Assembly (NCBI GenBank): GCA_943359395.1
Contig: CALRHH010000005.1
Coordinates: 1 to 62,345, forward strand
Source: Candidatus Nomurabacteria bacterium
Lineage (GTDB): Bacteria; Patescibacteriota; Minisyncoccia; Phycocordibacterales; UBA2100
Length of the DNA stretch: 62,345 nt
Direction: 5' to 3'
The notes under the pieces were generated by a model. It ran no database searches and was not told the DNA's origin. It worked only from the letters and a program-made list of their open reading frames with translations. Shown in pieces: positions 17,295 through 35,079 of this stretch; the stretch's first letter is position 1, and the number at the start of each line of letters is the position of its first letter. A program made the translations under genes and the position numbers.

Positions 17295-18554
17295 TTACTC
17301 TCGGTGAATACGCTTCGTTTTTGCGCTGACGGTCGGATGGAACGCTTCACAGGTTAGTTCAGCATAGCGCCCATCGGCAACTCCGTCTGCGTACGTCATT
17401 TCAGGGGATACTCGTATCAGCTTGGCTATACGTCTAGCCAGTTCATGGAGCGGGATTTCCCTCCGTAGCTCTACGCGAAGCAGTGGGGTGAGGAGTGGTC
17501 CGTTTCGACCTGCTTTTTCTGGGCAGTGAATTTCGAACCGGTCGGATACATCCTCTGGCATGGTTCGAAGCGCCCGCTCGATTTCATCTGCACGCAGGAG
17601 TCCTCCTGGAATCTTAAGAAAGTCCAACTCAGTGCGTCCAAGAACTGTGAAGGACCATAAGCCGTGAGGGCAATTCTCTTCAACTACTCGGACGGTATCG
17701 CCGATGCGAAAACGAACGAGGGGGAAGGCGGACGGTTCACCGGGGTATGCGGTGATAGCCAAATCACCCTCCGCATCCGACTTCGGTTCCACTAGGGCGC
17801 CCGTCTCAGGATCTACGAGCTCCAGGTAGTGAGTTTTTTTCTGGTGGTACACGGCGAGCGGTTCGTCTCCCGTCATTGGACGACACGGCATGCCAATGTG
17901 TGCGTCCTCGACCTCGCTCGAATTATACGATTGGATGATGGTGGCGTGGGGAAATGTCTCCCGCATATATTCGAATTGCGCTCGCGTACACATCTCACCC
18001 GTCACCTCAAGGAGACGTATTTTGTTCGCGCAGCCGAATCGCTTCATCTCCTCGCCTATTGCGGTGATATGAAAAATAAATACCGACATTCCATCTATCC
18101 CGGCGGCCTTTGCCAATTGGACAGACGCCGAGGGGTTCGCGGGGTCATACGCGATGATGCGGGGTAGGCAGCCATGCTCCTTTTGAAACATTGCGTGCCA
18201 GTGCGGCATCATCGGAGTCGTGAAAGCCATGAATGCGTTTTTGAAATTGTGGTAGTGGAGACGGTAATCCATTTCGCGGACGTGTGTACGGGGAGAGAAA
18301 AGAACTCCTTTCCCGCTCGTTCCCGAAGACACTCGCAGGTGGTCAACTTCTGAAAGCGGGATGAAACTCCGTTCTGCGAGTGATTTCGCCAATAGGTCGG
18401 CCTTGGTAAGGAAGGGAAGGGCGGACCATTCTTCTTTAGACTGAATGTGAAGTGGTGAATCTTCGGGACGCAGGCCGTATAGATTCCTGTAGAATTTGCT
18501 ACGCGCTTCTCCGGTCACGTACGTCACAATTTCGGCCGCATCTTTGAATTGCAT
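17295..18554 (-). CDS. PaaK/phenylacetate-CoA ligase-like adenylate-forming enzyme
   Basis: ANL motifs LPFLTK, SSGTSGK, YNSSEVE, PLVRFRIGD, GRTELDFLKIPGG and C-terminal KTKR. Start ATG 18554 has TAGTAT 7 nt upstream. Confidence 0.85.
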   Translation of the reverse strand: MQFKDAAEIVTYVTGEARSKFYRNLYGLRPEDSPLHIQSKEEWSALPFLTKADLLAKSLAERSFIPLSEVDHLRVSSGTSGKGVLFSPRTHVREMDYRLHYHNFKNAFMAFTTPMMPHWHAMFQKEHGCLPRIIAYDPANPSASVQLAKAAGIDGMSVFIFHITAIGEEMKRFGCANKIRLLEVTGEMCTRAQFEYMRETFPHATIIQSYNSSEVEDAHIGMPCRPMTGDEPLAVYHQKKTHYLELVDPETGALVEPKSDAEGDLAITAYPGEPSAFPLVRFRIGDTVRVVEENCPHGLWSFTVLGRTELDFLKIPGGLLRADEIERALRTMPEDVSDRFEIHCPEKAGRNGPLLTPLLRVELRREIPLHELARRIAKLIRVSPEMTYADGVADGRYAELTCEAFHPTVSAKTKRIHRE

Positions 18555-18607
18555 CACGAATATACTATCACGATCACAATCTGTACGGGTTTCCGATTCC
18601 TGCAGCA

Positions 18608-19882
18608 CTACGAACTATCGCGTATCATTCTTTTCCGTTTGCCGCGGTAGATAGGCTTATACGCGTCGCAGAAGATTGGAAGGTACATGCCACGTTCAAT
18701 TCCTTCTGCATACGTAAAAGCCGCTCCAACGCGAGTACATCGCTCAATTTCTCTGGCCAGCTTTTCAAAGTCGACCACGTTTGGAGCCTCAAGGAGGAGT
18801 GTAATGCCAATTTTTATAGCCCCCTCGTGTTCGACCTCCTTGAAATGAAGTTCAAACATGTCACTCACCCCCTCTCCGAGGTTGCGAAGTACACGCTCAA
18901 TCTCCTCCGCGCGCAGGATGCCCCCGGGGATTTTTATGAAATCCATTTCTACGCGTCCTGGCATGGTAAATGACCATGTACCGTGAGTGGGGCATGTGTC
19001 TTGGAATACGCGCGCCATATCTCCTGTTCTGTATCGAACTAATGGTGAAACAGCCTGTTTGGGAGGTCTTGTGGTGTCGGCAGTAATGACAATCTCCCCC
19101 TCGGTCTCGGGTTGTATTTTGAGCAATTCACGCGTGTCAGGATTAATCAGCTCGATGTAGTAGCCTTCGCGTGGGTGGTGCACTTCAAGTGGTTCTGCGT
19201 CTGATAGCGGGCGGCATGGGTAGGTGATGGGGGGATTCTCGACCTCGGTTGCTCCATAAAAAGATACGACAATTGCGTTGGGAAATATGCGTTTGGCATA
19301 ATTATACAGAGAGCGGGAACACGATTCGCCCGCGAGCTCGATAAATCGAATATCCGCTCCTATGCCGAGTCGCTCCGCTTCCGGGCCTATAAGAGCCAGG
19401 TGCCCGGTAAAGATGAAAAGAGAATCTACACCTGCGAGACGAGCAAGCTCTACCGAGGTTCGAGCTCGCCGAGGGTCGAACACGATGAGCTTTGGACTTA
19501 CGCTGTGTTGGTCAAGGAATTTCTCGTGCTGGTGATGAATTGGCATTGAGCAAAGCGCTGGCCGCGTAAAGGTATGGAATTTTGTCCGATATTCGTAACC
19601 GTCGAGTCGTACCCACGGGCTGAAATGCGGTGGTCTACCGGATGTTCCTGAAGATGCGTGGATTGAATTAATATCGCCCCACTCAATGAAAATCCGCTCC
19701 TCGATAGGGATGTTTTGCAGGATTGCTTTACTAATAAAGGGGAGAGATTGCCACGAGTTCCAGTCAGTAATGCGGAGCGGGCCAGAATGTGCATCTATCC
19801 CGTAGTGTCTCCTGTACAGTGGAGGAGTATCCTTTGCTGTTACTCGCTCCACGAGAGCTGAGAGGTCGTCAAAAGTACTCAT
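18608..19882 (-). CDS. PaaK/phenylacetate-CoA ligase-like adenylate-forming enzyme
   Basis: Motifs SSGTSGRP, YGATEVE, PLVRYRTGD, GRVEMDFIKIPGG, GKRKR. Start 19882 overlaps the upstream stop (ATGA). Confidence 0.85.
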   Translation of the reverse strand: MSTFDDLSALVERVTAKDTPPLYRRHYGIDAHSGPLRITDWNSWQSLPFISKAILQNIPIEERIFIEWGDINSIHASSGTSGRPPHFSPWVRLDGYEYRTKFHTFTRPALCSMPIHHQHEKFLDQHSVSPKLIVFDPRRARTSVELARLAGVDSLFIFTGHLALIGPEAERLGIGADIRFIELAGESCSRSLYNYAKRIFPNAIVVSFYGATEVENPPITYPCRPLSDAEPLEVHHPREGYYIELINPDTRELLKIQPETEGEIVITADTTRPPKQAVSPLVRYRTGDMARVFQDTCPTHGTWSFTMPGRVEMDFIKIPGGILRAEEIERVLRNLGEGVSDMFELHFKEVEHEGAIKIGITLLLEAPNVVDFEKLAREIERCTRVGAAFTYAEGIERGMYLPIFCDAYKPIYRGKRKRMIRDSS

Positions 19883-20577
19883 ACGGTTTGTGTGTATGTG
19901 AGCTCTCCGCACGCGCACAGTTCGCCTCCCGTAATCGGCGGAGCCTTGAGTTCGAACGAAGGTATCCCACCTCGCGGTAAGGTTTCAATGTTCCCCGTCA
20001 CCGGTTCGTATCGGTTTCCCTTTGTTATGTGAAAACGCGGGATGCCTGAGGTTTCCACCATGAGCATTGGGCATTGTGACAGTATGGGCAGACCGGGGAA
20101 GAGATGAACCTCCTGCGCAACCTTGCAGTCCGAGAGCAAGGCGGGGATATTCCAGATGTCTTCTGCACGATGGATAACAATCCATTTTTGGGGAAGCTTG
20201 CCATTTTCTTTTTGAACACAGTCAGCAAACGTTGATGCATCTCGTTGCTCGGTTACCACCGTGTCCATACCCCCGAGTTGGAGTGCCGAAACGCCGACAG
20301 GTATATTTTCAGGATCATTTAGAAAAATTGGAGCACGCGCAGCCCTACATGCGTACCAGAGGGGAACTTCGAGTTGCCAAAATAAGGGCAAACGCATCAT
20401 GACTCCGTGAGGCTTAAGTTCAAAAAGTGCTTGAGCGCAAGAATCCCAACGCCATTGTGGGTGAATGGGGAAGCCTGCCAAACCTGCATCTTCGGCTTCG
20501 AATGAGGTTGGAACAATTCGGCACGGTACAGACTTTAGAGCATCTTGGATTGCCTGGATTTGTTTGGATGCAATCAT
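19879..20577 (-). CDS. Degenerate/truncated PaaK-like partner protein
   Basis: ~232 aa with IVPTSF, GVMMRLPLFWQLE, QEVHLFPGLPIL and C-terminal CACG. No SSGT P-loop. TGC-TAGTAT lies upstream of ATG 20577. Confidence 0.7.
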   Translation of the reverse strand: MIASKQIQAIQDALKSVPCRIVPTSFEAEDAGLAGFPIHPQWRWDSCAQALFELKPHGVMMRLPLFWQLEVPLWYACRAARAPIFLNDPENIPVGVSALQLGGMDTVVTEQRDASTFADCVQKENGKLPQKWIVIHRAEDIWNIPALLSDCKVAQEVHLFPGLPILSQCPMLMVETSGIPRFHITKGNRYEPVTGNIETLPRGGIPSFELKAPPITGGELCACGELTYTQTV

Positions 20578-20668
20578 ATGTATGAATACTAGCAAAAACT
20601 AACCTCCTTCGTTACTGTCATGCTACATGAGAGTAGGTTTGTTGATGAAAATACGTAATTTAGAAGTC

Positions 20669-22455: not shown

Positions 22456-22579
22456 CGGGAGAGTATAGCAAATGGAATGTTCGTTGATTGCGCGTGTGAA
22501 CGGAACACAGGTATACTTGACACAATGCGATGTCGTTCCGGCCGCCAGTTTGGCGCGGGAGGTGACGCATATATTGGAT

Positions 22580-23659
22580 ATGCTCCGTATATTGAAGCGA
22601 ACCAGTATGGCGCTGTATATCGGCGGTGTTGTTCTCGTAGGCGCGCTCGTCTTGCTGTTGTGGCTGTCTCGTTCCCCGCAATCACCGTATTTGAAAGAAG
22701 GCGGTGTCGATTTCAAGCTTGCAACGATGTATTGGACGGGAAAAATTAACGCGTTTGGGTACGAGCGGGCGTATGCGGAATATAAAAAGTCCGGCGATGC
22801 TTTACCGATAAAAATATCCCATGTGCTGGCGCACGCTTTCGGTGAGGCTTTGTACAATACAAGGGGTTCTAGCGGAATTGCTTTGTGCACAGAAGATTAT
22901 TTCGGTGGCTGCATTCACCAAGTCGTCGGCTCGGCTATCCTTAAGCAGGGAATTGGAGTTGTGCAAGAGATGAATAAGGCGTGCCAAGGTGACCGCACGG
23001 GAGACACTCCCTGTTTGCATAGCATCGGCCACGGGCTTGTGGGATATTTTGGATACGATGTCCTTGCTCTCAAACAATCTCTCTCGGTGTGTGCTTCTCT
23101 GCAACAAGAACGTCGGGGAGGCTGTGCCGAGGGTGCAATAATGGAGTACAACATACGATTTCTTACCGACAGCGGACCGGACGGGCAACCTGCTTCTCGC
23201 CCGGTCACCACTGAGACCGTTCTCGGTCCCTGTGCGGAGCTTGGCGATACCGCTCAAAATTCATGTTATTACGAGTTGCCAGTCTGGTGGTGGTGGAGTG
23301 CTCAGGGCGACACGGCCGCGGAACACGAATTGTTCTCTCGCATGGGTGGCTATTGCGACGAGGTTTCTGATGTCTTCAAGAGGCGAGCTTGCTACGAAGG
23401 TATCGGTCATATGGCCGCTGTATCCGCAAACCTTCGTCAAGATACGTCGTATGAATTTTGTAAGAAAGCGAGCAACGATTCTCTGCACAGACTTTTTTGT
23501 GTCACGGGTATCGTCACGCGTCTGAGAATGGGGCAAGCGGATGGGTTTGCCCTCATGTGTCGCAATCCTGATTTCTCCCCCGAAGCTGTTCGTTATTGCA
23601 CGACGCAATCAAGGACCGACTTCGGTCTCATCGACAAGCTTCCTATACCCGTTATGTAA
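22580..23659 (+). CDS. Membrane-anchored Cys/His-rich helical-repeat protein (subtype B)
   Basis: Motifs HVLAHAFG, GCIHQVVG, CLHSIGHG, CAEGAIMEYN, LPVWW, ACYEGIG. Start is 22580 or 22607. Confidence 0.85.
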   Translation: MLRILKRTSMALYIGGVVLVGALVLLLWLSRSPQSPYLKEGGVDFKLATMYWTGKINAFGYERAYAEYKKSGDALPIKISHVLAHAFGEALYNTRGSSGIALCTEDYFGGCIHQVVGSAILKQGIGVVQEMNKACQGDRTGDTPCLHSIGHGLVGYFGYDVLALKQSLSVCASLQQERRGGCAEGAIMEYNIRFLTDSGPDGQPASRPVTTETVLGPCAELGDTAQNSCYYELPVWWWWSAQGDTAAEHELFSRMGGYCDEVSDVFKRRACYEGIGHMAAVSANLRQDTSYEFCKKASNDSLHRLFCVTGIVTRLRMGQADGFALMCRNPDFSPEAVRYCTTQSRTDFGLIDKLPIPVM

Positions 23660-23663
23660 CGAT

Positions 23664-26447
23664 ATGGATCATATCCGAGGATGGAAGTCGTCAGGCGTAT
23701 TTCAGAAAGTCTTTGAGCCTATTTCTTTACTCATTGCTCTACAGGCTGGATTTGTCATTGTCGGAATTACCCGCTGGGGGTTCAATGTTACGTGGGCAGA
23801 CGTGGCGTTGGCGCTTTTTGCCACTGTCGGCACTGAGTTCCTCCTGACGCGGTCAGTCTATTTTCCAAGAGGTGTGATTGCCAGCGCGCTTGGTATTGCG
23901 ATTTTCTTTCGAGCATCGAATCCTCTGTATTTTGCCGTAGCCGGGTGTGTAGCCGTTCTATCGAGACGCCTGATCCGGACATCAAAGAGGGGGCAGTTAT
24001 TCAACGCTTCCAATGCTACCATTTTGTTGCTTGTTCTGTTATTCCCAGCGTCAACAACGACTGAATTTACGCAGTGGGGTGGCAATGTGTACGAATATCT
24101 TCTCATTGACGCCGCGATTTTGTTCGTTGCGTATAGGTCGGGGGTACTAGTTACGACCGCCTCGTTTTTAAGTTCGTACTTTGTATTGCTGCTAGGACTT
24201 TTGTCATTCTACCCAGACTTCGTTTCGGTGCATCATTACGGCCTCCTCGGTCCGTCACTGATTTTATTTGCATCGTTCATGATTACGGATCCGAAGACTT
24301 CTCCGGGGATATTTCGTGAACGCGTCATTCACGGTATATCGATTGCTCTGCTCCTGTTTGCGCTCGAAATAGCGGGTGTACGGTACTCGATTTTCTTGGC
24401 TGCTTTTCTCGTAACACTTGTAAACGTACTCTCGCGATCAGAATTCATGATGTTTGCTCGTCGCATTCCCATAGTTGGACACTATTCGAACGCACTCTCA
24501 TTCATGGTCGCGTTCACGGCGTTGCTCATTGCCGTCCTTCAGACGTTCCCGGGAGCCGCTGTGATGCAGGGATTCCGCGTATCGCCAGATTTCCTTTTGC
24601 GTGGGATTGAAAGCCCCCGCATCTTGCAATGTAACCTGGAGCAGACTCTTCAGCCCTCACGTGCAGCGAAGTTTGCGCCATATATGTACACCTCAGGAGC
24701 TGCGTGGAGTGATTATGACGGTGATGGATACGACGATTTGTTTGTCTCGAACCTCGCAGGGCCGAGCATCCTCTATCACAATAACGGAGACGGCACATTT
24801 TCGGATGTGACCAGCGCGGTCGGGCTTCCGGGCAAGAGTTCCGCCAGCGCAGTATTCGCCGACTATGATAACGACGGGCGGCTTGACCTTTTTGTCGCAT
24901 ATGTTCCGAGTTACGCCGCGTTCAATCGCTCTCCTTTGCAGCATGCTCAAGATGAATCACAAGCATTTCGCGTCTATCGCAATAATAGAAACGGCATGTT
25001 CTCCGATGTAACGGACAGTTTGGGACTTGGGGGTACGATAGTGCGTAACTACACGGGCGCAGCATTCTCATTTGGCGATTACAATAATGACGGAAGGCTC
25101 GATATTGTGTTTGTGACCGGCGGACTTGTGTATCCGGTTGCAAAAACAAACCCAGCGATGTTGAAGTCGCTGTTCGACCCCCGGTTCGACGACGTAACCC
25201 GCTTGGTATGTGACGCAGAGGAGATTCTGTCTATCTATAAGTCGTTCGGCACTCGTGCGTACGGTACGGTATCCGATGTGGAGCGGTTTGTGCACGCGGG
25301 AGGCTGTCTTGTTTTGAACGACTCCCTTCAGTTGGTATCTTTTAGCGAACTTCGATTACCGCTACCACACTTCGGCAGCCCCGTTGACGCCCTCTGGCTC
25401 ATGCCGGGGTCGATGCATCTTTTCGAAAATAAGGGTGGGCGCACATTCGTTGAACACACGGAGTTTGAACAACAGGTGTTAGGTGTTAATCGTTCCTATA
25501 CATACGATATCCGTCACCTTACACATCCTTACGATTATGTTTCGCGCCATTTCTTCCAACCGATTTCCTTGGATTATGACAGGGACGGGATCCAGGACGT
25601 GTTTATCACGAGTGGTTGGGGAGGCAATCTGCTCTTGAAAAACCTAGGTGATTTTAAGTTCAAAGACGTCACTACGCAGACGGGGGTTGACTATGCGGGT
25701 AGTGGCATGGGAGTAGATGTTGGAGACCTCGATGGCGACGGGGCACCGGATATTGTTACGACCAACGTGCTGCGTGACTATCTCTTCATGTCGACTGGGA
25801 GCGGAGCGTACACCCTCTCGAATCAGTCACTCGCGGCACAAGGGCTCGGGTGGGGTGTTTCTTTTCTTGATTATGATCTCGACGGACAGCAGGATATATT
25901 CATCGCTAACGGCGATGTGCCACGAATCGTGGCAAGAACGGACGGTTCTTTGAGTCGCACGCTGTACCGCACGGACCGCTTGTACCGGAATAACGGCAAT
26001 GGTACGTTCACCGACGTCACATGGGGTGCATTCTGTCCCGATTCTCAAAGTGGCAGAGCTGTTGCGGTCTCGGACTTCGACAATAACGGCACGCCCGATG
26101 TATTCGTTGGTAATATCCTGCTCGCTGGTAGCGGGACGAGCCCCGATATTCTCTATGTAAATACTACGAAGGCGTCCTATATTAAGGTGCGGTTGCAAGG
26201 GACAAAGAGTAATTCGTACGGCGTTGGAGCGGAGGTATCAGTAATTGCTGGGACCTCTACTCAGGTAAAGTCGGTTTTGGCCGGGAGCAGTTTCTATTCA
26301 CAGAATAGTCCGCGTCTTGTGTTTGGGCTCGGATCACTTTCGTCCGACATTCCTATTCAGGTCATCGTCCGGTGGCCGTCAGGGAAAAAGACAATTCTGC
26401 AAAATGCAAAAATGAATACTGAGGTAATTATACGCGAGACGATATAA
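23664..26447 (+). CDS. Fusion of an RnfD/NqrB-like (UnbU-like) membrane domain with FG-GAP/VCBS repeats and a C-terminal ASPIC/UnbV-type domain
   Basis: The N-terminal ~300 aa are polytopic, with FNASN and FMITDPKTSP. These are followed by repeated DYDGDGYDDLFV / DYDNDGRLDLFV / DLDGDGAPDIV / DFDNNGTPDVFV and a C-terminal IKVRLQG...GVGAEV...SFYSQ...FGLG. Confidence 0.75.
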   Translation: MDHIRGWKSSGVFQKVFEPISLLIALQAGFVIVGITRWGFNVTWADVALALFATVGTEFLLTRSVYFPRGVIASALGIAIFFRASNPLYFAVAGCVAVLSRRLIRTSKRGQLFNASNATILLLVLLFPASTTTEFTQWGGNVYEYLLIDAAILFVAYRSGVLVTTASFLSSYFVLLLGLLSFYPDFVSVHHYGLLGPSLILFASFMITDPKTSPGIFRERVIHGISIALLLFALEIAGVRYSIFLAAFLVTLVNVLSRSEFMMFARRIPIVGHYSNALSFMVAFTALLIAVLQTFPGAAVMQGFRVSPDFLLRGIESPRILQCNLEQTLQPSRAAKFAPYMYTSGAAWSDYDGDGYDDLFVSNLAGPSILYHNNGDGTFSDVTSAVGLPGKSSASAVFADYDNDGRLDLFVAYVPSYAAFNRSPLQHAQDESQAFRVYRNNRNGMFSDVTDSLGLGGTIVRNYTGAAFSFGDYNNDGRLDIVFVTGGLVYPVAKTNPAMLKSLFDPRFDDVTRLVCDAEEILSIYKSFGTRAYGTVSDVERFVHAGGCLVLNDSLQLVSFSELRLPLPHFGSPVDALWLMPGSMHLFENKGGRTFVEHTEFEQQVLGVNRSYTYDIRHLTHPYDYVSRHFFQPISLDYDRDGIQDVFITSGWGGNLLLKNLGDFKFKDVTTQTGVDYAGSGMGVDVGDLDGDGAPDIVTTNVLRDYLFMSTGSGAYTLSNQSLAAQGLGWGVSFLDYDLDGQQDIFIANGDVPRIVARTDGSLSRTLYRTDRLYRNNGNGTFTDVTWGAFCPDSQSGRAVAVSDFDNNGTPDVFVGNILLAGSGTSPDILYVNTTKASYIKVRLQGTKSNSYGVGAEVSVIAGTSTQVKSVLAGSSFYSQNSPRLVFGLGSLSSDIPIQVIVRWPSGKKTILQNAKMNTEVIIRETI

Positions 26448-26477: not shown

Positions 26478-27755
26478 TCAGTGGGCAATCATGCGTTTGC
26501 TTTTCGTTGGCGATTGAGTGCTTGTGATGGGAAGACAGGTAAGTGGTAGGTAGATGCCGTCCTCAACACCTTCCGAGTACGTCCGAAAAGGACCGACACG
26601 TAGTTCTTGTGCTATACGCTCAGCAAGTCGATTAAGAACTTCAGGTGAGTTTTGATCACGTGGTTCAACGTATAATATAACCTCGACCTTCTGACCTTCT
26701 GAACTGGGACGAAGGTATCTGTGAAGTTCGAATCGATCGGTAATCTCTCCGTTGAACACCCTCAGTACTCGTTCTGTTTCGTCCGCACGCAACATACCTC
26801 CCGGTATCTTGATAAAGTCAATCGATACGCGTCCTATCAGGGTAAACTGAAGTTGATTATGGGCGGCGCACTTTTCGGGCAGTATTCTGACGATATCGCC
26901 AGTTCGGTATCGTATGAGAGGAGTCGCACGCGGCTTTGGTGAGCAGGACGTAATAACAAGTTCTCCCTCGGTTCCCGGCTCGTACGGTAGTACGATCTCT
27001 TGTTCCGAGTCAATAATCTCATGATAGTGAGAGGGCTTAGTGTGGTACACAGAAAGAGGTTCTTCGCCGGTAATGGCTCGACAGGGAATACCAACCGGCT
27101 TGTCTTCAATCTCCGCGGCACCAAATTGCGGAATAATGGTGGCGTTTGGGAATGTTCGTTTTATAAAATCGAAGAGTGAGCGCGTACAGGATTCTCCGCA
27201 CATTTCTATTAGTCGAATTTGTTCAGCAATGCCTTCCTGTATCATTAGTTTTCCTATGAGTGGTACATGGAACGCAAATGTCGAGATAGCGTCGACTCCC
27301 GCGATTCGTGCAAGACGGACAGAGGCCGCAGCATGAATTGGATCAAATGCTATTACCCGCGGGGCATACCCTAAGGATATTTGTAGGTCTTCGTGCCAAT
27401 GAGGCATACAGGGGACGTTGGATGCGAGAATCGGATTCTCGAAAGAGTGATACTGAAGTCGGTATTCAAGACCGCTTGGGATGGAGCGCAGTATAAACGG
27501 CGGCGTCTTCCCGCTTGTGCCTGACGACGTGCGTATATCTTCGACGTCGGTATTTGATGCAAAAAATCGATTCGCGACAGGAGTTTCAGTTAAGAGGTCT
27601 TTCGTTACAAGCGGGAGCTTTATCCACTCATGCCATCCTGCCAGATGCAAGGCGGGTTCTCCATCGCGCATACCGTAGAGCGTGCGGTACATATTCGGCG
27701 CATCCGGGGCGGTGCATTCCGCGATGAGTTCTCTGAGCCTCTCAAGATCATTCAT
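26478..27755 (-). CDS. PaaK/phenylacetate-CoA ligase-like adenylate-forming enzyme
   Basis: Start refined to ATG 27755, overlapping the upstream stop. Motifs LPLVTKD, TSSGTSGK, FGAAEIE, PLIRYRTGD, GRVSIDFIKIPGG, KSKR. Confidence 0.85.
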   Translation of the reverse strand: MNDLERLRELIAECTAPDAPNMYRTLYGMRDGEPALHLAGWHEWIKLPLVTKDLLTETPVANRFFASNTDVEDIRTSSGTSGKTPPFILRSIPSGLEYRLQYHSFENPILASNVPCMPHWHEDLQISLGYAPRVIAFDPIHAAASVRLARIAGVDAISTFAFHVPLIGKLMIQEGIAEQIRLIEMCGESCTRSLFDFIKRTFPNATIIPQFGAAEIEDKPVGIPCRAITGEEPLSVYHTKPSHYHEIIDSEQEIVLPYEPGTEGELVITSCSPKPRATPLIRYRTGDIVRILPEKCAAHNQLQFTLIGRVSIDFIKIPGGMLRADETERVLRVFNGEITDRFELHRYLRPSSEGQKVEVILYVEPRDQNSPEVLNRLAERIAQELRVGPFRTYSEGVEDGIYLPLTCLPITSTQSPTKSKRMIAH

Positions 27756-28557
27756 GGAAATATTCAATTTCGGCCTTTCCGCATACACATACTCCTTGTT
27801 CGATTGCGACGAATGGAAGTCGGTATCTGATGAATGGCAGGGGGTCATCCCCCGCGCTCGTGATGAGCGTTCTATCTGATTTGAATACCCACGTATAAGA
27901 GTCTGATGCATGAAAAGTCTTTGCGCGTCTTTCAATAAGTGACCCGCATTGTTCCAGAATAGGGACACCAGGGAAGACATGCACCTCTTGGGCGACCTTC
28001 GTCCCTGTTGAGAATTCAGGGGGAATGTGTTGCGGAACTGCATCGACACTATGTACGAATACCCACGAGCGTGGGATGTTCCGTTGTTTTGTCGAAAGAT
28101 ACGATAGAACTGCTTGGCAATCTTGAGTTGTCGTTATGATTGTATCGATGGTGAGAGAATCAATCGCCAGCGAATTGACGGGAGTATTGGATATATCTGC
28201 CACGAAAAACAGAAGACCCGAATCACGACATACTCGATACGTTGCTGACTCCATCTGCCAAAAGAGGGGTAAGAGCATCATGACAGCTCGACTTTCTAAT
28301 ACCTTGAGGTAGAGTCGCAGAGATTGCCACTCGCTCTGCAAGGGGCGCGGAAATGCGGTTAGTGACGGATCGAGCGGGTTGAACGAAGCAGGCACCAGTC
28401 TGAAGGGGGACTTCGAGATGTTTTTTTCGGCTCTCTGTAGCAGATGCAACAGTGCCTCGTGCGAAGTCTCATCTCCATAAGGAGTGGGTTCAATCTCAAA
28501 TCTTGCGTAGGCCTCCTCGGGGCTTTGTTTGAATGTGTGTGTACGAGGTGTGGTCAT
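27748..28557 (-). CDS. Degenerate/truncated PaaK-like partner protein
   Basis: Motifs LVPASF, AVMMLLPLFWQME, QEVHVFPGVPILEQC, PFIRYRL, CVCG. Confidence 0.75.
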   Translation of the reverse strand: MTTPRTHTFKQSPEEAYARFEIEPTPYGDETSHEALLHLLQRAEKNISKSPFRLVPASFNPLDPSLTAFPRPLQSEWQSLRLYLKVLESRAVMMLLPLFWQMESATYRVCRDSGLLFFVADISNTPVNSLAIDSLTIDTIITTTQDCQAVLSYLSTKQRNIPRSWVFVHSVDAVPQHIPPEFSTGTKVAQEVHVFPGVPILEQCGSLIERRAKTFHASDSYTWVFKSDRTLITSAGDDPLPFIRYRLPFVAIEQGVCVCGKAEIEYFHE

Positions 28558-28644: not shown

Positions 28645-28872
28645 TTGGAGAATATGAAAAAATTGCATACATTCGTTCTCTATTCGACCGGTCTCGCCCT
28701 ATCATTCTTAGGCGTATATATTTCTAAGGAATTTGTTGCAACACCCGACAGGGGTGTGGTTGCGAAGGCGTCTGCTCAGTGTGTAGACCAATCTGCCACT
28801 ACGAATGTAGAAGTATCGCAGGGAAATGAGAACCAGCTGCTTTTCGTTAGCTGCGGTGGCTTTATCCAATAA
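28645..28872 (+). CDS. Small membrane-anchored peptide with C-terminal C-x23-C / FVSCGG motif (peptide 3)
   Basis: 75 aa (TTG start, or ATG 28654) with a hydrophobic N-terminus, ending QLLFVSCGGFIQ. TGC-TACAAT lies 7 nt upstream of the TTG. Confidence 0.85.
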   Translation: MENMKKLHTFVLYSTGLALSFLGVYISKEFVATPDRGVVAKASAQCVDQSATTNVEVSQGNENQLLFVSCGGFIQ

Positions 28873-28927: not shown

Positions 28928-30034
28928 ATGCTCGACCGTGCTGGGTACAGTTTGATAGCCGAGAAAACATTCAGTGATTTTAGATCGGCTCCTCCTGCAA
29001 AAGAAGATGCGTGGCGCTATTGTGTCCGCGTCACGTCAGGAACGACGGGAGGGCAGCTCATTGGTGCGGTACTACAATACCAAGCCGAATCCGTTAAGCG
29101 TTTTTCCCAACTCCGCGCTCCTGTTCTTTGTTTGGGTGCCTCGGCAACACGACTTGCGTACAATTTGCAGGCGAGACACGGAATGCCGGCGGAGTCTCGG
29201 TCGCTTGTATTGGATGGTGCGGATTTAAACTCAGAACTGAAAGTTGTATTAGCTCAATACGCTCCGGACAGCATCTTGGGCTTTGTTTCATTTGTTGTAC
29301 GTGTTGCGGAATATATCGACAGAGAAACAGCATTGGGTGTAAGAGCCATTATCTTGAGTGGGGAGTGCACCACAGAGGCGATGGAGAGTCTCTTGCGGGA
29401 CACATTTCCTAACGCGAGAATCACGAGCAGATATATTGCTCTAGAAGTCGGGCGTATTTCTGAGGTTTCGTGTGGATTCCAACCCCCCAATCACTACCAT
29501 CCTTATAAGGGCGTGAAGGTTGAAATAGACTCGCCTGATGAAAGTGGCGTAGGGAGTATTTTAGTGTCACCAAGTACCCGACCGGAGGTTATTCAATACC
29601 AGCTCGGGGATGTGGGAAGGCTGAAGAGCGAGCCCTGTCCTTGTGGAGCAACCGAGATTCTTGAGATAATGGGGCGTAACGGACGGGATTACGTAAAGCT
29701 CGCAGGTGCAATCGTGAGGAGGGAGGAGTGCGACCGCGTAATGCTGAGCGTCGCGCTGTTCGACGACTACCGATTAGACACCTCCCACGTAATTCTCGAT
29801 GGTAAGCTGCGGGGAAAGCTCCACTTGCGTGTATATCGAAAAGATGGACAACGGAGTCCTGATTTGGGGGCACGAATAGAGAAGGAATTTTCTCGACAGC
29901 TGTACCTCTCGCCCTCGCGGACGCTTGCCGAGCTTGTCAGAACGGGTGATTTTGTCCCGCTTTCCGTAACGTTTGCTGATGCGCCTTTTCCTATCAAAAA
30001 TAAAGAAATAAAAATCCTAATGGTCGACGCATAG
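28928..30034 (+). CDS. PaaK/phenylacetate-CoA ligase-like adenylate-forming enzyme (divergent)
   Basis: Motifs VTSGTTG, SGE, YIALEVG, YQLGDVG...EPCPCG...IMGR..DYVKLAG. TATAGT lies 7 nt before the ATG. Confidence 0.8.
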   Translation: MLDRAGYSLIAEKTFSDFRSAPPAKEDAWRYCVRVTSGTTGGQLIGAVLQYQAESVKRFSQLRAPVLCLGASATRLAYNLQARHGMPAESRSLVLDGADLNSELKVVLAQYAPDSILGFVSFVVRVAEYIDRETALGVRAIILSGECTTEAMESLLRDTFPNARITSRYIALEVGRISEVSCGFQPPNHYHPYKGVKVEIDSPDESGVGSILVSPSTRPEVIQYQLGDVGRLKSEPCPCGATEILEIMGRNGRDYVKLAGAIVRREECDRVMLSVALFDDYRLDTSHVILDGKLRGKLHLRVYRKDGQRSPDLGARIEKEFSRQLYLSPSRTLAELVRTGDFVPLSVTFADAPFPIKNKEIKILMVDA

Positions 30035-30036
30035 CT

Positions 30037-30801
30037 ATGAACGATACTCTTCACGAATCATTGCGCGTCTTGATAAACGAAGTTGGCTCGAACCAATTGG
30101 CTGACATCTACCATACCGTGTGGGGTGAGAGGCGAGCGCTCGATGTGCTCCCCGTTATTTCCCGCGATGAATTATTTGGTTCCCCACTTGCTAGTCGTCG
30201 ATACAAGTCTGCTAGTTCACTGGTAAAGATATTCCATGTCGGAGAGAAAACTTTCCTATCGGAATGGGCGTATGAAGATGTCGCCCGAGAGCAGTTCGGC
30301 ACCGAGACGAAGCGTCCGATGGTGTACTTGTCCGATAATGCCGAAAGTATAGAAAAGTCCATGTGGTGCTATGAGAGAGGAATGGTGCCTCTGATAGGGG
30401 AAGTACATAATCCCGCAGCGGCCGTAGCCATGGCAAAAAAGTACCAAATTGATTCGCTTATTACCGACGAATTGTCGTTGGAGCGATTCCGTCCTTTTTT
30501 TGGCGATTGTCCTTACACCTTGACTTCTATTTCAATTATTGGGCCGCAATTTACCATTGCGCGCATCCAGTGGGTTCTTCCCTACGCAAAAGAAGTTCGT
30601 CTTGTCCTCACTCTTCCAGAAACGGGGGCATTTGCTCGGGCAAAGCTGGAGGTGAATCCAGTTTTTTCACCGCTTCCTAGGTGCGATATTGAGACTGTCG
30701 GTGAGACGTTGGTCCTCACGAAACAAGACTCACTTGTCACACCGATTATTCGATACGATACGGCCATCTCATCAAAATCTGTCCGCATCCAGAACGCGTA
30801 G
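30037..30801 (+). CDS. Degenerate PaaK-like protein (second type)
   Basis: 254 aa with LPVISRDEL near the N-terminus and PIIRYDT near the C-terminus, but no SSGT P-loop. Lies directly after the ligase. Confidence 0.55.
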   Translation: MNDTLHESLRVLINEVGSNQLADIYHTVWGERRALDVLPVISRDELFGSPLASRRYKSASSLVKIFHVGEKTFLSEWAYEDVAREQFGTETKRPMVYLSDNAESIEKSMWCYERGMVPLIGEVHNPAAAVAMAKKYQIDSLITDELSLERFRPFFGDCPYTLTSISIIGPQFTIARIQWVLPYAKEVRLVLTLPETGAFARAKLEVNPVFSPLPRCDIETVGETLVLTKQDSLVTPIIRYDTAISSKSVRIQNA

Positions 30802-30804: not shown

Positions 30805-31569
30805 CTAGGGTTCTCGACGTACGCTGTAGTGTGAAAAGAAGACCCGCTCAGTCAGTGAGATTGCACCAAAGATGAGCACGCCCCCCGCAATCAACACGAG
30901 GAGGGCTCCAAACATTTCAGCGGTACGGAAGTAGTAGTAGTTTGTAAGTATGAGATGCCCGAGACCGGCATTTGAGCTTACAAACTCCGCGGCAACGGCA
31001 CCTGCAATTGAGGTTGCAAGCGCCGCTTTTATTCCGGCAAAAAAGTAGGGAACAGCATTTGGAATCTGGAGCTTGAGAAGTACTTGAAATCGGGTAGCAG
31101 ACAACGAGCGCATGAGTTCGCGAGCGCCGCCGCTCACTTCGTCGAATCCTTTCATGAGGTTTATAACGGTAAAAAATGTTGAAACGACAGCGGCAGTCGC
31201 TGCTTTTGCAAGGAATCCATTACCCAGCCAGAGGAGTAGAAAAGGAGCGACGGCGATAATCGGCGCTATTCTCGTCGCAACCAAGTATGGGTAGAGGGTG
31301 CGTCGGGTGATAGGCCAGAGTTGAAATGAAATTGAAAGCAGCGTGCCTCCAACAATGCACAAAGCAAATCCCGTCAAAGCTTCTGAAAACGTGATTCCGG
31401 CATCGTAAAGGAGTGTCGGGTAGGAATTGCTTATTGACGCGAGTACACTCTGCGGTGAGGGGAGGAGATAGGAGGGGATTGAAAATACGCGAACAATAAA
31501 AGCCCAGAGGGCAATCCCTACGAAAGGAGCGATTATCGCGGGAAGAAATTGTTTTAGGATTGTGTTCAT
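30805..31569 (-). CDS. ABC transporter permease (NitT/TauT family)
   Basis: YLLPSP, six TM helices, EAA-like ELMRSLSATRFQVLLKLQIP, AEFVSSNAGLG. Confidence 0.9.
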   Translation of the reverse strand: MNTILKQFLPAIIAPFVGIALWAFIVRVFSIPSYLLPSPQSVLASISNSYPTLLYDAGITFSEALTGFALCIVGGTLLSISFQLWPITRRTLYPYLVATRIAPIIAVAPFLLLWLGNGFLAKAATAAVVSTFFTVINLMKGFDEVSGGARELMRSLSATRFQVLLKLQIPNAVPYFFAGIKAALATSIAGAVAAEFVSSNAGLGHLILTNYYYFRTAEMFGALLVLIAGGVLIFGAISLTERVFFSHYSVRREP

Positions 31570-32303
31570 ACAATCGTGGCGCGTATCTTCCGGCGCAAAG
31601 AATTAAAATGTTCCGAGTACCGTACATCCGAGGTCCTCTCTCGAGGTAAGTCAATAGTAAATTCTTCTTTTACCTCGCCAGGTCTTCCCGAGAGTACGAT
31701 CACGCGGTCGCTCAGAAAAACAGCTTCGTCTATATTGTGGGTGACGAATACGACGTTCTTCACGGTCGTCTCTTTGTTTTTCCATAACTGGAGAAGTTCG
31801 TCGTTGAGGCGTTCGCGTGTGATTTCGTCGAGGCTAGCAAAGGGCTCATCAAGGAGTAGTGTCGTTGGCTCAGAAATAAGTGCTCGCGCAATAGCCACCC
31901 TCTGTTGCATGCCACCAGAAAGCTCAGAAGGGTAACTGTCCTCGAAACCATCCAATCCGAGCTTCTTTAAAAGTTCTGGAATACCAGCCTCTTTTTGAAG
32001 CGAACACCCCTGAATTTCAAGTGGTAAACGCACGTTCTCTCTCGCCGTTCGCCATCGCATAAGTATTGGATCTTGAAACACAAACGAGAACGAGCTAGGT
32101 CCATTGTCCGTGGATACAGTTCGCGAGCCGGAAGTGGGGTTGATAAGACCGCCGATTATTTTTAGAAGAGTACTTTTCCCACAGCCCGAAGGTCCAACGA
32201 TAGAAACAAACTCATTTCCAGCGATCTCCATGGTGATACCCTGAAGGGCCGTTGCGCTTTTTTCCCCGTAATAAACTTTTGTGACATCGTCTAGTCTGAT
32301 CAT
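31566..32303 (-). CDS. ABC transporter ATP-binding protein (NitT/TauT family)
   Basis: Walker A GPSGCGKST, signature LSGGMQQR, Walker B LLLDEPF, VTH. Confidence 0.95.
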   Translation of the reverse strand: MIRLDDVTKVYYGEKSATALQGITMEIAGNEFVSIVGPSGCGKSTLLKIIGGLINPTSGSRTVSTDNGPSSFSFVFQDPILMRWRTARENVRLPLEIQGCSLQKEAGIPELLKKLGLDGFEDSYPSELSGGMQQRVAIARALISEPTTLLLDEPFASLDEITRERLNDELLQLWKNKETTVKNVVFVTHNIDEAVFLSDRVIVLSGRPGEVKEEFTIDLPRERTSDVRYSEHFNSLRRKIRATIV

Positions 32304-32346
32304 GTTGCTTTTAGGGACAATGTACCGAGTTTCTGGGACGAATGCG

Positions 32347-33351
32347 TTATATCTTCAGAAACTGATTCGTATACACATCTTGCAGGTTGAGCGGCTTTGC
32401 CATGAGTCCCTGCTCCAAGAGTGTGTCTTGCATTGTTTGCCACTTTGCTTCGTCCATCCAGCCCAGTGTTTCTCCGTCGGTATTCGGTAAGACGTACGCG
32501 GCCCGCGTTTTCAGCGCTTCAAGTTCAGCTTCTTTGTCGACCGTTCCCTGCATCTCCGCTGCCACCATATCAACCGCTTCCTCAGGATAATCAAACGCAT
32601 ACTTCCATCCCCGCAGTGTTGCCCGAATGTATTTTTGCACCGTATCAGGATGTTCTTCGATAAAACGGTCGGTAGTGAAGATGGTGTACCCGTAGGAGTC
32701 TATTCCGTATTCAAACGGATACAGTGCGTTGATTTCTATGCCATCCTTCTTGCCCGCTGCTTTTGCAAATATAAAGTCGGATATAAAACCAGGCTGAACG
32801 TCTACGGCACCACTAAATAAGGACGCAATGGCAGGATTCTTTTTGACCTCCGTGATCGTTGATGTCGCAAGACGCTCTTTCCGTACGAGTGCGCGATAAA
32901 CGACTTCCAGCGGCCTGCCGTAGGAAACAGCCACCGTCTTTCCCTCGAAGTCTTTCGGGCTGGAAATGCCGCTGCTCTTTTTAGAAAAGAACACATACGG
33001 GCTCTTGCGATCCAAAATCGCGACAGCCTTTATCGGAATGTCGTTTTGTCTCGCGAGCAATATGGATTCTGCGCCGCTTTCGACTCCGAAATCGGCTGCA
33101 CCTGACGTTACGAGTACTATAGAGGGAAAGTCGGGACCGCCTGGCTTGTTCGTCACGTCGAGACCTTCCTCTGCGTAGAATCCTTTCTTTTGCGCTACGA
33201 AAAAACCAGCTTGATTTGCGTTAACCAGCCAACCGAGTTGCACCGTTACTTTTGTGAGCGTTAACGGCTGGGTAGGTTTGAATGCATCCGCAACATATGC
33301 GACGACGACAATGAAGACGAGAAACACGAGAAAGATAAGTATCTTTTTCAT
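32347..33351 (-). CDS. ABC transporter substrate-binding protein (NMT1/THI5-like)
   Basis: QLGWLVNANQAGFFVAQKKGFYAEEGLDV, SPKDFEGKTV, FIEEHPDTV..RATLRGW. Start refined to MKKIL (33351). Confidence 0.85.
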   Translation of the reverse strand: MKKILIFLVFLVFIVVVAYVADAFKPTQPLTLTKVTVQLGWLVNANQAGFFVAQKKGFYAEEGLDVTNKPGGPDFPSIVLVTSGAADFGVESGAESILLARQNDIPIKAVAILDRKSPYVFFSKKSSGISSPKDFEGKTVAVSYGRPLEVVYRALVRKERLATSTITEVKKNPAIASLFSGAVDVQPGFISDFIFAKAAGKKDGIEINALYPFEYGIDSYGYTIFTTDRFIEEHPDTVQKYIRATLRGWKYAFDYPEEAVDMVAAEMQGTVDKEAELEALKTRAAYVLPNTDGETLGWMDEAKWQTMQDTLLEQGLMAKPLNLQDVYTNQFLKI

Positions 33352-33435
33352 ACATGCATATTCGTAAGGCTCGTAAAGCCGCCGCATTATAGCAATTGAC
33401 CAGGTCGGTACAACAGAGTGATACAATGCGCCCAA

Positions 33436-34818
33436 ATGAAGTCGCCAGATTCTTTTCAGGAGTTCCATCAACTAGCGGTACGGGACCCGTTGTGTGCTGC
33501 GGAGGGTATGGATATTGAACGGGCCGTACAGGGCCTCAATGAGATTCAACGCGCCATTGCCGAGGTAGAGCGTGAATCATGTGAGGGTAGTTTTTTGCGG
33601 AAACTTTTTATTGCGCGGTATCCGATAGCTCGGCATGTACTGCCGCTGCCGTTCCTTTGGAGTTTTGTTGATAGCGAGCGTGTACGAAGAGAGTACCTCG
33701 CTGATTCATCCGAAGAATCAGCACGAAAGCTCGCGCTCTCTTGGCGGGAATCTTCTCGGGTCCTCGAGAAATGCGCGAGGCGTTACATGAATCTCCATAG
33801 GACCTTCAGAGCGTTAGAGAACGTGGGGAACAGCGATGTGTTCGAGGACCGCTTCGGTAATTCATCTTCTTCGGCGTACATTCATAATTCAGTTGCTTCT
33901 TTAGTGCGCAATGCGATGACGTTACGAGGTGAGGCGGACCGGCGTTTTCGACTACTCTCTGGCGGAAGTAGCACCAAAGAGCCGCCGGCAGTCTCTCGTG
34001 AGACTCCCGTGCTCTTAGCGCACGAAGTCGACCTCTCTCCTGAGTCAGCCCGTGTTCATGCCCTTGAACGCTTGTATGGGACGCCGTTTCGGCATGTTGA
34101 TATTTTGGAGTCATACGGACCCTTTCGGTACAATCTTCGAAATTTTGAAGGAGTTACTACGCCGCACGACTTCACGCTCTATGTTACACGTAACAAGAAA
34201 ACGGGTCGCATTGGTATGGAAGTGTCGCGGGTGGATGCCTTTGTGTTTTATGAACTTACCGAGAGGCACAATTTTCATTTCAATGACATTTCAATGGCGA
34301 ACTACAGGTCGCTCATAGAACGTGGAATATCGTATTGGTACGAATCGTCCACGCATCTCTACACGATGCGTGACCAGCGATACTGGATGGATATCGCCAC
34401 CATCGTTGATTTGAAAAGACGGCCTGAATTGAATCGAAATTACCTCCTCACACAACGTTCCTCAATGTTCGATTTGCTGACTGACGTCTTTATACGACAC
34501 ACTCAATTCAATATCGGCTATGCGCGGCGGCGGAAATCGAACGGAACGGCGAGTACATACTCGCCGTATCGCGGACTCTTGAACCACAGCTATCCAAGTC
34601 TCTATTACCTCACGTTCAACAAAAGTGTGTGGCGTTTGCCTGAGGAGCCGCAGTTTATCGGTGATGGAAGAGTAAGTACGGAAGGAAGGCCGTATCGACC
34701 GAGTGCCGAGGTCTTGCCGACTTTAGTGTCGGGTGCACTCGAACAAGTAATGCAGGGTTCTCGCATACGCGAAGCGTACGAGCGAGAAAGGGGGATGGTT
34801 CCAATGGACGAGTACTAG
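33436..34818 (+). CDS. Hypothetical protein, divergent family X copy 4 (no TM anchor)
   Basis: RDPLCAAEGMD aligns with RSPLLGLEGTD; LPLPFL...ERVRREYL aligns with LYPIDFL...ETARKQFI; C-terminal PSLYY...RPY. Confidence 0.6.
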   Translation: MKSPDSFQEFHQLAVRDPLCAAEGMDIERAVQGLNEIQRAIAEVERESCEGSFLRKLFIARYPIARHVLPLPFLWSFVDSERVRREYLADSSEESARKLALSWRESSRVLEKCARRYMNLHRTFRALENVGNSDVFEDRFGNSSSSAYIHNSVASLVRNAMTLRGEADRRFRLLSGGSSTKEPPAVSRETPVLLAHEVDLSPESARVHALERLYGTPFRHVDILESYGPFRYNLRNFEGVTTPHDFTLYVTRNKKTGRIGMEVSRVDAFVFYELTERHNFHFNDISMANYRSLIERGISYWYESSTHLYTMRDQRYWMDIATIVDLKRRPELNRNYLLTQRSSMFDLLTDVFIRHTQFNIGYARRRKSNGTASTYSPYRGLLNHSYPSLYYLTFNKSVWRLPEEPQFIGDGRVSTEGRPYRPSAEVLPTLVSGALEQVMQGSRIREAYERERGMVPMDEY

Positions 34819-34994
34819 AAGAAATCGCCGCAGTTTGCAAAATATATTTCCTTCTGGTCTTTTATCGCTGTGTTTCCTGCGGGGTTCAGCTGCGTTTGTC
34901 GAGGTGCTCGGCGCGAAAAACTTGAGTATATATGAATAACCGAGAACACGATCCCTCCCAATACGTACATGAGAGTCTGAGAAATCCAGCTCAT
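34815..34994 (-). CDS. Small membrane-anchored peptide with C-terminal IYFANCGDFF motif (peptide 4; absent from the ORF track)
   Basis: Hand translation gives 59 aa: MSWISQTLMYVLGGIVFSVIHIYSSFSRRAPRQTQLNPAGNTAIKDQKEIYFANCGDFF*. TATACT (35002-35007) lies 7 nt upstream of the ATG. Confidence 0.7.
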   Translation of the reverse strand: MSWISQTLMYVLGGIVFSVIHIYSSFSRRAPRQTQLNPAGNTAIKDQKEIYFANCGDFF

Positions 34995-35079
34995 AACGGT
35001 AAGTATAGTGTCTCGACGCGTACCTGCAAACTTGAGCGTTCAGCTCTGGCAGATTATTTTTTCGACATAGAACCATAAA

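Follow-up and report, generated by a model that had tools for sequence, protein, structure and literature searches.

The peptide pep4 (59 amino acids, aa; MSWISQTLMYVLGGIVFSVIHIYSSFSRRAPRQTQLNPAGNTAIKDQKEIYFANCGDFF) is encoded at 34815-34994 on the minus strand of a 62,345-nucleotide (nt) stretch of Candidatus Nomurabacteria DNA (assembly GCA_943359395.1, contig CALRHH010000005.1). This whole stretch is called the window here. On the comparative evidence, the open reading frame (ORF) is protein-coding and maintained by selection. The best explanation, which is considered highly probable, is a functional gene for a single-pass membrane peptide. pep4 would represent a new, single-Cys, leaderless and probably cytoplasm-facing variant of an undescribed family of ligase-associated peptides. 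It appears to be coupled to X4 (460 aa; 33436-34818, plus strand), a cytoplasmic, anchor-less and Cys-poor remote homologue of family X, which is its convergent neighbour. The assignment is based on translation, positional orthologues, a frame-specific coding signature and a profile match.

The ORF translates exactly as in an earlier note on this DNA, where it had been read by hand and regarded as a fourth motif peptide missed by the ORF track. The ORF listing of the window includes 34815-34994(-), and the peptide gene proved to be real. Its TAG stop (34815-34817) and the TAG of X4 are located within the palindrome CTAG, so that the two genes have 4 nt in common, as had been noted. pep4 ends with IYFANCGDFF immediately followed by the stop codon, and C55 is its sole Cys. 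The motif codons K48-F59 (KEIYFANCGDFF) occupy 34818-34853 and comprise the invariant residues F52, C55 and G56. An N-terminal transmembrane segment is predicted at about residues 4-24 (34923-34985; mean Kyte-Doolittle hydropathy 1.79 over residues 4-20). It is flanked by no K/R on the N side and by three on the C side. With 59 aa and a hydrophobic segment at residues 4-20, pep4 conforms to the family plan of one N-terminal helix within 52-87 aa. A six-frame scan yielded exactly four ORFs in the window that end with F-x-x-C-G-x(1-5)-stop: pep4, pep1 (16696-16905, minus strand, ...VYFVSCGGTF), pep2 (16994-17218, minus strand, ...VIFVSCGGIY) and pep3 (28654-28872, plus strand, ...LLFVSCGGFIQ). 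The last one comprises 72 aa, and its gene opens the operon whose final gene is X4. In first-order Markov simulations, the loose motif pattern is expected 1.6 times per window and a tighter pattern, formulated after the data were seen, 0.0025 times. Since the loose pattern can be expected by chance, the motif alone is suggestive but no proof. The proof is carried by the comparative evidence.

Relatives were sought via the neighbour X4 and not via the peptide. This means, the conservation test of pep4 is unbiased. In the protein database, X4 homologues form 13 clusters with 37-100% identity, and contigs were examined for eight of them. In addition, the genome collection provided one match, L001, which is labelled as a Candidatus Nomurabacteria metagenome-assembled genome and encodes an X4 with 72% identity. 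In five related metagenomic loci (L001, L002, L003, L005 and L010), an ORF of the same architecture and 52-63 aa was found on the opposite strand directly after X4, with the C-terminal motif IYF[AV][NGS]CG. All six ORFs, that of the window included, are convergent with X4 and end -4 to +9 nt from its stop, at X4 identities of 38-75% for the relatives. In the window (X4 taken as 100%), the 59 aa peptide ends with ...KEIYFANCGDFF and the gap is -4 nt. The peptides from L001 (X4 72% identical, 59 aa, gap +5 nt), L002 (75%, 63 aa, +5 nt) and L003 (74%, 63 aa, +1 nt) all terminate with ...KEIYFANCGDFY. L005 (48%, 61 aa, +9 nt) has ...DDIYFAGCGGFLP and L010 (38%, 52 aa, -4 nt) has ...DDIYFVSCGEFL. 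The motif of this pep4 class can be written as K/D-E/D-I-Y-F-A/V-N/G/S-C-G-D/G/E-F-aromatic/Leu, followed by the stop codon or one further residue. In L003, L005 and L010, the orthologues were annotated independently by gene callers (P0022-24); the ORF is unannotated in the window and in the gene table of L002. The N-terminal part of pep4 scores 37.9 bits against a leave-one-out hidden Markov model (HMM) of the orthologues. The peptides of L005 and L010 are assigned to pep4 as orthologues by their position, by the lack of the upstream Cys and by the DDIYF motif.

The substitution pattern shows that the pep4 motif is under strong purifying selection at the protein level. Over the whole ORF, comparisons between the window and L001-L003 yielded proportions of synonymous differences (pS) of 0.50-0.88, which is near saturation, and of nonsynonymous differences (pN) of 0.28-0.39. 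Over the last 13 codons, pN is 0-0.03 versus a pS of 0.35-0.88. The motif codons are swapped between TAT and TAC, TTT and TTC, GCA and GCG, ATA, ATC and ATT as well as TGC and TGT. Except for the last residue, the motif is identical to that of L001-L003 despite 2-5 synonymous changes per pair. When one alignment was read in six frames, the pep4 frame had a pN/pS of 0.48, and four of the others had values of 1.05-1.40. The fifth, an antisense frame, reached 0.58, which is expected because it shares third positions with the pep4 frame. An alternative 117 aa frame on the same strand (34723-35076) was considered as a gene and rejected: It is broken in L005 and L010, and two alternative sense frames have pN/pS values of 1.05 and 1.28. 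The earlier note had named disruption or non-conservation in relatives as the outcome that would speak against a gene. Instead, the ORF is intact in five related loci, and changes in the motif are biased towards synonymous ones.

Relatives of pep4 were obtained exclusively via X4. With an alignment of the four window peptides, homologues of pep1 and pep3 were obtained and none of pep4; with a pep4 alignment, only the three copies already known. A metagenome scan with the pep4 alignment pointed to a sole locus, L011 (1872-2372, plus strand), which was discarded as a false positive. It encodes a membrane-anchored cytochrome c (YFANCGSCH) that has the 9-mer KEIYFANCG of pep4 at its CxxCH haem site and a similar layout of N-terminal helix, linker and motif. 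This resemblance is judged to be coincidental, though curious. pep4 itself is not a class I c-type cytochrome: It ends with CGDFF, lacks the CXXCH site with its second Cys and its His and has no Pfam cytochrome match.

A σ70-type promoter precedes the pep4 start codon, with the -10 box at a distance of 6-7 nt. The box TATACT (35002-35007, minus strand) is located 7 nt upstream of the ATG, and a -35-like hexamer TTTGCA (35025-35030; 9 of 12 matches in the promoter scan) precedes it with a 17 nt spacer. The complete arrangement reads TTTGCA-17-TATACT-7-ATG, where the 7 nt TACCGTT do not comprise a Shine-Dalgarno sequence. All six loci have a -10 box 6-7 nt upstream of the ATG, namely TATACT in the window, L001, L002 and L003 and the extended boxes TGcTAAAAT and TGcTACAAT in L005 and L010, respectively. 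TTTGCA recurs at identical spacing in L003, and TTTGAA at a slightly different spacing in L002. None of the six loci has a Shine-Dalgarno sequence at usable distance; the GGAG of L002 is only 1-2 nt away from the ATG. For bacterial leaderless genes, a TANNNT sequence located about 10 nt ahead of the start codon has been published as a signature (PMC3160421). pep4 conforms to the criterion of that study, a TANNNT box about 7-12 nt upstream and no Shine-Dalgarno sequence. The pep4 mRNA is thus likely to be leaderless with a 5' end at or next to A34994, and would be translated without a Shine-Dalgarno sequence.

The 10 nt upstream sequence that the earlier note had found to be common to pep4 and pep1 is real. 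Exactly two copies of TATACTTACC are present in the window, one at 34998-35007 and one at 16909-16918 (both minus strand), each of them 3 nt before the ATG of a motif peptide. The 10-mer match alone is not significant: There are four matches with at most one mismatch versus 1.4 expected, and 6 of 100 shuffled sequences reach four. Its core turned out to be a general leaderless -10 box and not a peptide-specific element. TATACT-N7-ATG is found eight times in the window, whereas 0.15 occurrences are expected. An ORF of 59 aa or more begins at each of the 11 TATACT-N6/7-ATG sites; of all ATGs, only 35% open an ORF that reaches 50 aa. Several long genes as well as pep1 and pep2 start at such sites. 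Because the pattern marks 11 ORF starts, the shared 10-mer can be regarded as the genome-wide -10 hexamer plus four coincident bases. It therefore supports a leaderless start at 34994. The pep3 start differs: A GGAG sequence is present, and a TGcTACAAT box lies 16 nt upstream. Further TATACT-N6/7-ATG sites are located at 22525, 46723, 51728, 54249, 47579, 58993 and 59928 on the plus strand and at 22455 on the minus strand. Two of them precede unannotated small ORFs, one of 74 aa from 22525, which overlaps a 395 aa ORF in another frame, and one of 63 aa from 46723. Those at 51728, 54249 and 22455 suggest shorter true starts of long ORFs.

Exact-product look-ups revealed that neither the pep4 nor the pep1 product is on record as a called gene. 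Homologue searches returned the called window products pep3, pep2 and X4 (P0001, P0002 and P0009) and did not return pep4. pep1 is uncalled in the window although five of its orthologues were called elsewhere (P0004-P0008). It seems that gene calling systematically registers too few small leaderless genes in this contig. The window agrees with DNA contigs assembled for three lake-water runs, which contain no variants. Tandem repeats were not found.

None of the four window peptides matches a Pfam or NCBIfam model. A family profile from the window peptides and their first matches was used to search 1.84 billion representative proteins and found 49 matches at E <= 0.001, about 47 of them peptides of 60-87 aa. 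This family of about 47 clusters (at 50% identity) is without a Pfam or NCBIfam model and undescribed in the literature searched: Queries for FVSCGG, for PaaK together with peptides that are made by ribosomes and modified after translation (RiPPs) and for PaaK-type C-terminal activation yielded no description of the system. In the main family, a basic N-terminus is followed by one hydrophobic helix, a linker, the sequence "..A-C-[TV]-P..", about ten further residues and [DE][IV][YF]F[VI]SCGG[ITF][FY] at the C-terminus. pep4 aligns with a profile of pep1-3 over the 18 C-terminal columns (hhalign 96%, E 3.9e-9). It scores 16.9 bits against a family HMM without pep4-class sequences (49 members, i.e. 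48 representatives and pep1 of the window). At its extreme C-terminus, it carries the motif [IVL][YF]F[VIA][SNGT]CG followed by 3-4 residues and the stop codon. Furthermore, it belongs to a cluster with PaaK-like ligases, the Z protein and an X-family protein, with Z and the ligase LIGc 6-8 kb away. pep4 is probably a divergent paralogue of the ligase-associated family.

The pep4 class differs from the main family in several respects. All 48 of 48 main-family sequences have an upstream Cys at a distance of 13-24, mostly 14, residues from the motif Cys, and none of the six pep4-class sequences has it. Because it is missing in all six, pep4 is regarded as a separate subclass. In the pep4 class, the position of the second motif Gly is occupied by D, G or E, and the median length is 60 aa versus 72 aa in the main family. 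It had been stated in the earlier note that pep4 keeps only the motif Cys, which is correct; this Cys is conserved in all six orthologues. The conclusion drawn there, that the motif Cys rather than a disulfide is the invariant element, holds in part. Across the family, only F, C and G are invariant, but the second Cys is present throughout the main family and is dispensable only in the pep4 subclass. The charge pattern is reversed, too. The difference in K/R between N flank and C flank is -2.0 in the pep4 class (0.83 vs 2.83) and +0.73 in the main family (2.08 vs 1.35), and the net charge of the tail is +2.3 versus -1.4 (Mann-Whitney p = 3e-4, calculated on phylogenetically non-independent sequences). 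The basic N-terminus and acidic tail of the main family, with a predicted N-in/C-out topology, are not found in the pep4 class. Based on the positive-inside rule, main-family tails are predicted to face outward, and the pep4 tail is probably cytoplasmic. Further pep3-type peptides were detected in L012 (1093-1398, minus strand, ...MLFISCGGFLE) and L013 (922-1143, minus strand, ...FLD) on contigs with pep1 and pep2 clusters. Therefore, relatives too hold three or more peptide subtypes per genome.

The earlier note had designated 33436-34818 a divergent copy of family X. No connection between X4 and the three family X paralogues of the window was detected by BLASTP, and with a profile of three X sequences hhalign arrived at a probability of 73%. 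With a 10-sequence profile, composed of the three window proteins and seven from L012 and L013, the value was 96.1% (E 3.4e-9, 387 columns), which confirms the designation. X4 is a true remote homologue of family X and, as judged from its sequence features, a distinct anchor-less subfamily. An N-terminal hydrophobic anchor and four invariant Cys are present in 10 of 10 X proteins (524-562 aa). In 13 of 13 X4 sequences, there is neither an N-terminal anchor nor a conserved Cys. An AlphaFold2 model of X4 reached a predicted local distance difference test score (pLDDT) of 82 and a predicted template-modelling score (pTM) of 0.86. Foldseek with this model revealed no PDB fold match at E <= 0.001, and PDB sequence searches with X4 and with Z found nothing. 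The modelled X4 fold may be new. Two pairs can be discerned: Exported Cys-bearing X proteins go with two-Cys, acidic-tailed peptides, and the cytoplasmic Cys-free X4 goes with the one-Cys, basic-tailed pep4. From this parallel, we infer that X-type domains are the likely partners of the C-terminal motif. In L009, a Z-family gene (6344-7060, minus strand) instead of a peptide gene is convergent with X4 and overlaps its 3' end by 16 nt. This suggests an ancestral convergent operon of Z, ligase and peptide, still found in this form in L010.

The first cluster of the window (11795-20595, minus strand) has the order Z, ligase, ligase, pep2, pep1, X, X, X, which recurs in L012 and L013. In the second cluster, Z (27748-28557) and the ligase LIGc (26478 to about 27767) are encoded on the minus strand (26478-28557), divergent from pep3; they were assigned by paralogy and ligase orthogroups. 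On the plus strand, pep3 is followed by LIGs (28928-30034), a short PaaK-like adenylate-forming ligase of 368 aa with PDB matches to phenylacetate-CoA ligase and AjiA1. It aligns to residues 82-427 of the long ligases (hhalign 99.8%). W (254 aa; 30037-30801, plus strand) is a degenerate paralogue of the N-terminal ligase region. It matches residues 13-168 of the ligases (hhalign 90%, E 1.6e-6) and has lost the SSGTSG P-loop. W always accompanies the N-terminally truncated 368 aa ligase. Between W and X4, the window contains an ATP-binding cassette (ABC) transporter (30805-33471, minus strand) with permease, ATPase and NMT1/THI5-like binding protein according to Pfam. The insertion is also present in L001 and L003 and absent in L002, L005 and L007. 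The order pep3-type peptide, short ligase, W and X4 was found in L002 and L005; in L007, the four genes also adjoin each other, but W precedes the short ligase. In L010, Z and a group-A ligase are directly followed by the pep4-like peptide. The earlier note had argued that pep4 links the peptides to family X independently of the ligases. The link to family X exists, as X4 is homologous to X. It is not independent of the ligases, because X4 is the last gene of the pep3/LIGs/W/X4 operon and because the L010 peptide follows Z and a ligase.

The cluster ligases are distant PaaK/ANL-type adenylate-forming enzymes (NCBIfam; PDB 9s3l, 4r1l and 6wuq) that score far below the family cut-offs (50 bits vs 300-700). 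The long ligases can be divided into three orthogroups that follow the peptide subtype. Group A (17295-18608 and copies in L010, L012 and L013) adjoins peptides with ...CGGIY, group B (18608-19918 and copies in L012 and L013) goes with ...CGGTF, and group C (26478 to about 27767 and L002) is found in the CGGFIQ pep3/pep4 cluster. In L012, the modules are physically apart: One comprises Z, ligase A, the IY peptide and X, the other Z, ligase B, the TF peptide and three X genes. The peptide subtypes differ in their last two or three residues. When pep4 is counted, the window has four ligases and four peptides. Ligases and peptides are likely to form cognate pairs. Ligase orthogroups co-vary with the C-terminal subtype of the peptide, which is only indirect evidence for RiPP precursors, whose core region would be modified by enzymes of the cluster. 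Scans of peptides, X, X4, Z and W with Pfam, NCBIfam and PADLOC found nothing usable, including no match to a defence-system model. An FG-GAP/ASPIC protein with an eight-helix membrane domain (23541-26447, plus strand) is encoded between the two peptide clusters. Another FG-GAP/ASPIC protein in L005 (3936-7624), preceded by a radical SAM gene, adjoins the pep4 orthologue. The regions 352-11366 and 22472-23659 of the window comprise about ten paralogous genes for proteins of 330-500 aa without Pfam match, one of them with a cupredoxin-like domain. This paralogue expansion flanks the first peptide cluster, and in L002 one member is located between pep3 and the short ligase.

Four other explanations were weighed. 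A chance frame in an intergenic or terminator region, whose conservation would stem from the X4 3' end or a non-coding RNA, could account for a motif expected 1.6 times per window in its loose form, for the overlap with the X4 stop and for other frames on the strand that are also open in some loci. However, the overlap with X4 comprises just 4 nt, and the alternative frames are interrupted in L005 as well as in L010, with pN/pS values of 1.05-1.40. Neither an Rfam match nor a significant terminator was found, and non-coding conservation would not produce the match to an independent family HMM. That there is no gene is therefore extremely improbable. A decaying paralogue, i.e. a functionless relic of a motif peptide, is strongly disfavoured and very unlikely. 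A relic would explain why the second Cys and the second Gly of the motif are missing and why the ORF is absent at several X4 loci and uncalled in three of six. In contrast, it would not be expected to remain intact in six loci with saturated synonymous sites, to combine a motif pN of 0-0.03 with a pS of 0.35-0.88 and a frame-specific coding signature, or to conserve start codon and -10 box in position.

pep4 might be similar to a type I toxin: It is a small, leaderless peptide with a single helix. Its whole mRNA would pair with read-through transcripts from the X4 operon, since the stops overlap and no terminator fits between them, and convergent antisense transcription could thus curb its synthesis. 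Yet the conserved part is the hydrophilic C-terminal motif of ligase-linked peptides and not the helix, PADLOC and Pfam provided no toxin match, and in L010 the peptide gene is co-oriented with Z and ligase. A toxin is accordingly given very little credence. It is possible, although not probable, that pep4 is a real small membrane protein which is no enzyme substrate: It might be a detached anchor or regulator that holds X4 at the inner membrane face, with X4 bound to the pep4 tail, or a decoy that competes with pep3 for shared machinery. X4 and pep4 remain neighbours, while upstream of pep4 the gene differs between loci: It encodes an SSF transporter in the window and in L002, TctC in L001 and in L003 and a radical SAM protein in L005. 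X4 has no anchor as opposed to 10 of 10 anchored X proteins, the pep4 tail is basic and Cys-poor, and NCGD departs from the SCGG consensus. On the other hand, the most conserved part of pep4 is the C-terminal motif of the ligase-linked peptides, the L010 peptide directly follows Z and ligase in a precursor-like position, and X4 occurs without pep4 in four loci.

Several observations weigh against a functional peptide gene in a ligase-associated system. No pep4 ORF was found beside X4 in L004 (X4 64% identical), L006, L007/L008 and L009, and pep4 is therefore not an obligatory companion of X4. The central part of the peptide changes rapidly in evolution, and at the N-terminal end the peptides of L005 and L010 have only a weak resemblance to that of the window (4.3 and 9.6 bits). 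Orthology in L010 is positional and partial because the peptide gene adjoins a group-A ligase, the place that pep2 holds in the window. In the run search, the sequence was present in DNA runs of the lake-water metagenome only and in no RNA run, and the gene call is made from sequence. The topology argument is heuristic, as it relies on hydropathy and charge of sequences that are not phylogenetically independent. The AlphaFold2 model of Z, built from three paralogues, has a low pLDDT of 38. Interaction and chemistry are proposals.

For pep4 as a functional membrane peptide, the following working model is regarded as the most likely. pep4 would be the cytoplasm-facing version of the family, which has lost the second Cys and acquired a basic tail, and would be paired with X4 as the anchor-less, Cys-free version of the exported four-Cys family X. 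The C-terminal motif would be the functional end, recognised by an X-type domain, in the case of pep4 by X4, and by one of the cognate PaaK-like ligases of the cluster. Adenylate-forming enzymes convert a carboxylate to acyl-AMP and transfer the activated group to a thiol, a hydroxyl or an amine (PMC6594144). Since such enzymes act on carboxylates and the peptide subtypes differ at their last residues, the simplest chemistry would be activation of the C-terminal carboxylate or acylation of the invariant Cys, in both cases at the expense of ATP. A more far-reaching scheme is a new ribosomal-peptide system, in which PaaK-like (ANL) ligases, one per subtype, activate the C-terminus of membrane-anchored peptides with ATP. 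The Cys four residues upstream might attack and form a five-residue thiolactone similar to autoinducing peptides (AIPs), though made by a ligase and not by a peptidase, or the activated group might be transferred to another acceptor, with X-family proteins as the partner. pep4/X4 would then be a cytoplasm-facing, disulfide-free duplicate of an extracytoplasmic peptide/X pair. In this complete form, the scheme is speculative and rather unlikely to be correct.

AgrD, the AIP precursor of Firmicutes, is attached to the membrane by an N-terminal helix, and the Cys of its C-x4 segment forms a thiolactone with the C-terminal carboxylate. It has a C-terminal tail that is cleaved off and is processed without ATP by the membrane peptidase AgrB. 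pep4 likewise is a small ribosomal peptide with N-terminal helix and a Cys five residues from the C-terminus (C-x4). Unlike AgrD, it has the motif at its encoded C-terminus and no cleaved tail, its neighbours are ATP-dependent PaaK-like ligases, and a thiolactone is hypothetical here. An AgrB-like protein was not found among the neighbours scanned. MccA-MccB (microcin C), ThiS/MoaD and ubiquitin-like proteins (reviewed in PMC12250964 and PMC12596934) share with the pep4 system a short ribosomal product, a conserved C-terminal end with nearby Gly-Gly and a dedicated adenylating enzyme alongside. In contrast to E1/ThiF systems, the enzymes here belong to the ANL/PaaK superfamily, GG is followed by two to three residues and replaced by G-D in pep4, and a membrane helix takes the place of the beta-grasp fold. 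pep4 is no carrier of the ubiquitin-like, ThiS-MoaD or Pup type, as it ends with CGDFF and the ligases are ANL/PaaK-type and neither E1/ThiF- nor PafA-type. The best sequence matches of the cluster ligases are PaaK phenylacetate-CoA ligases and the CoA-independent AjiA1 and BagE/FevW. Unlike PaaK ligases, they form orthogroups that match the peptides, and one copy is N-terminally truncated and accompanied by W. Finally, pep4 resembles mycobacterial leaderless small proteins missed by annotation, as described in PMC4633059 and, for TA-led genes, in PMC3160421: a short ORF at the transcript 5' end, a -10 box about 7 nt upstream, no Shine-Dalgarno sequence and under-calling. It differs from them in its lineage, Candidatus Nomurabacteria, and by its place in a specific enzyme-linked family.

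The analysis of pep4 shows that gene callers passed over a real 59-codon gene that is under selection, and it has exposed an unannotated family of about 47 peptide clusters. The TATACT-N7-ATG rule provides a practical aid to re-annotate gene starts and small genes in this lineage. The single-Cys pep4 and the Cys-free X4 can serve as a natural control, which suggests that the F-x-x-C-G end and not the Cys-Cys pair is the core of the system, and the pair points to X-type domains as partners of the motif. If it is true that the ligases act on the peptide C-terminus or on the Cys, uncultured bacteria that have been little studied would possess a new enzymatic way to modify ribosomal peptides.

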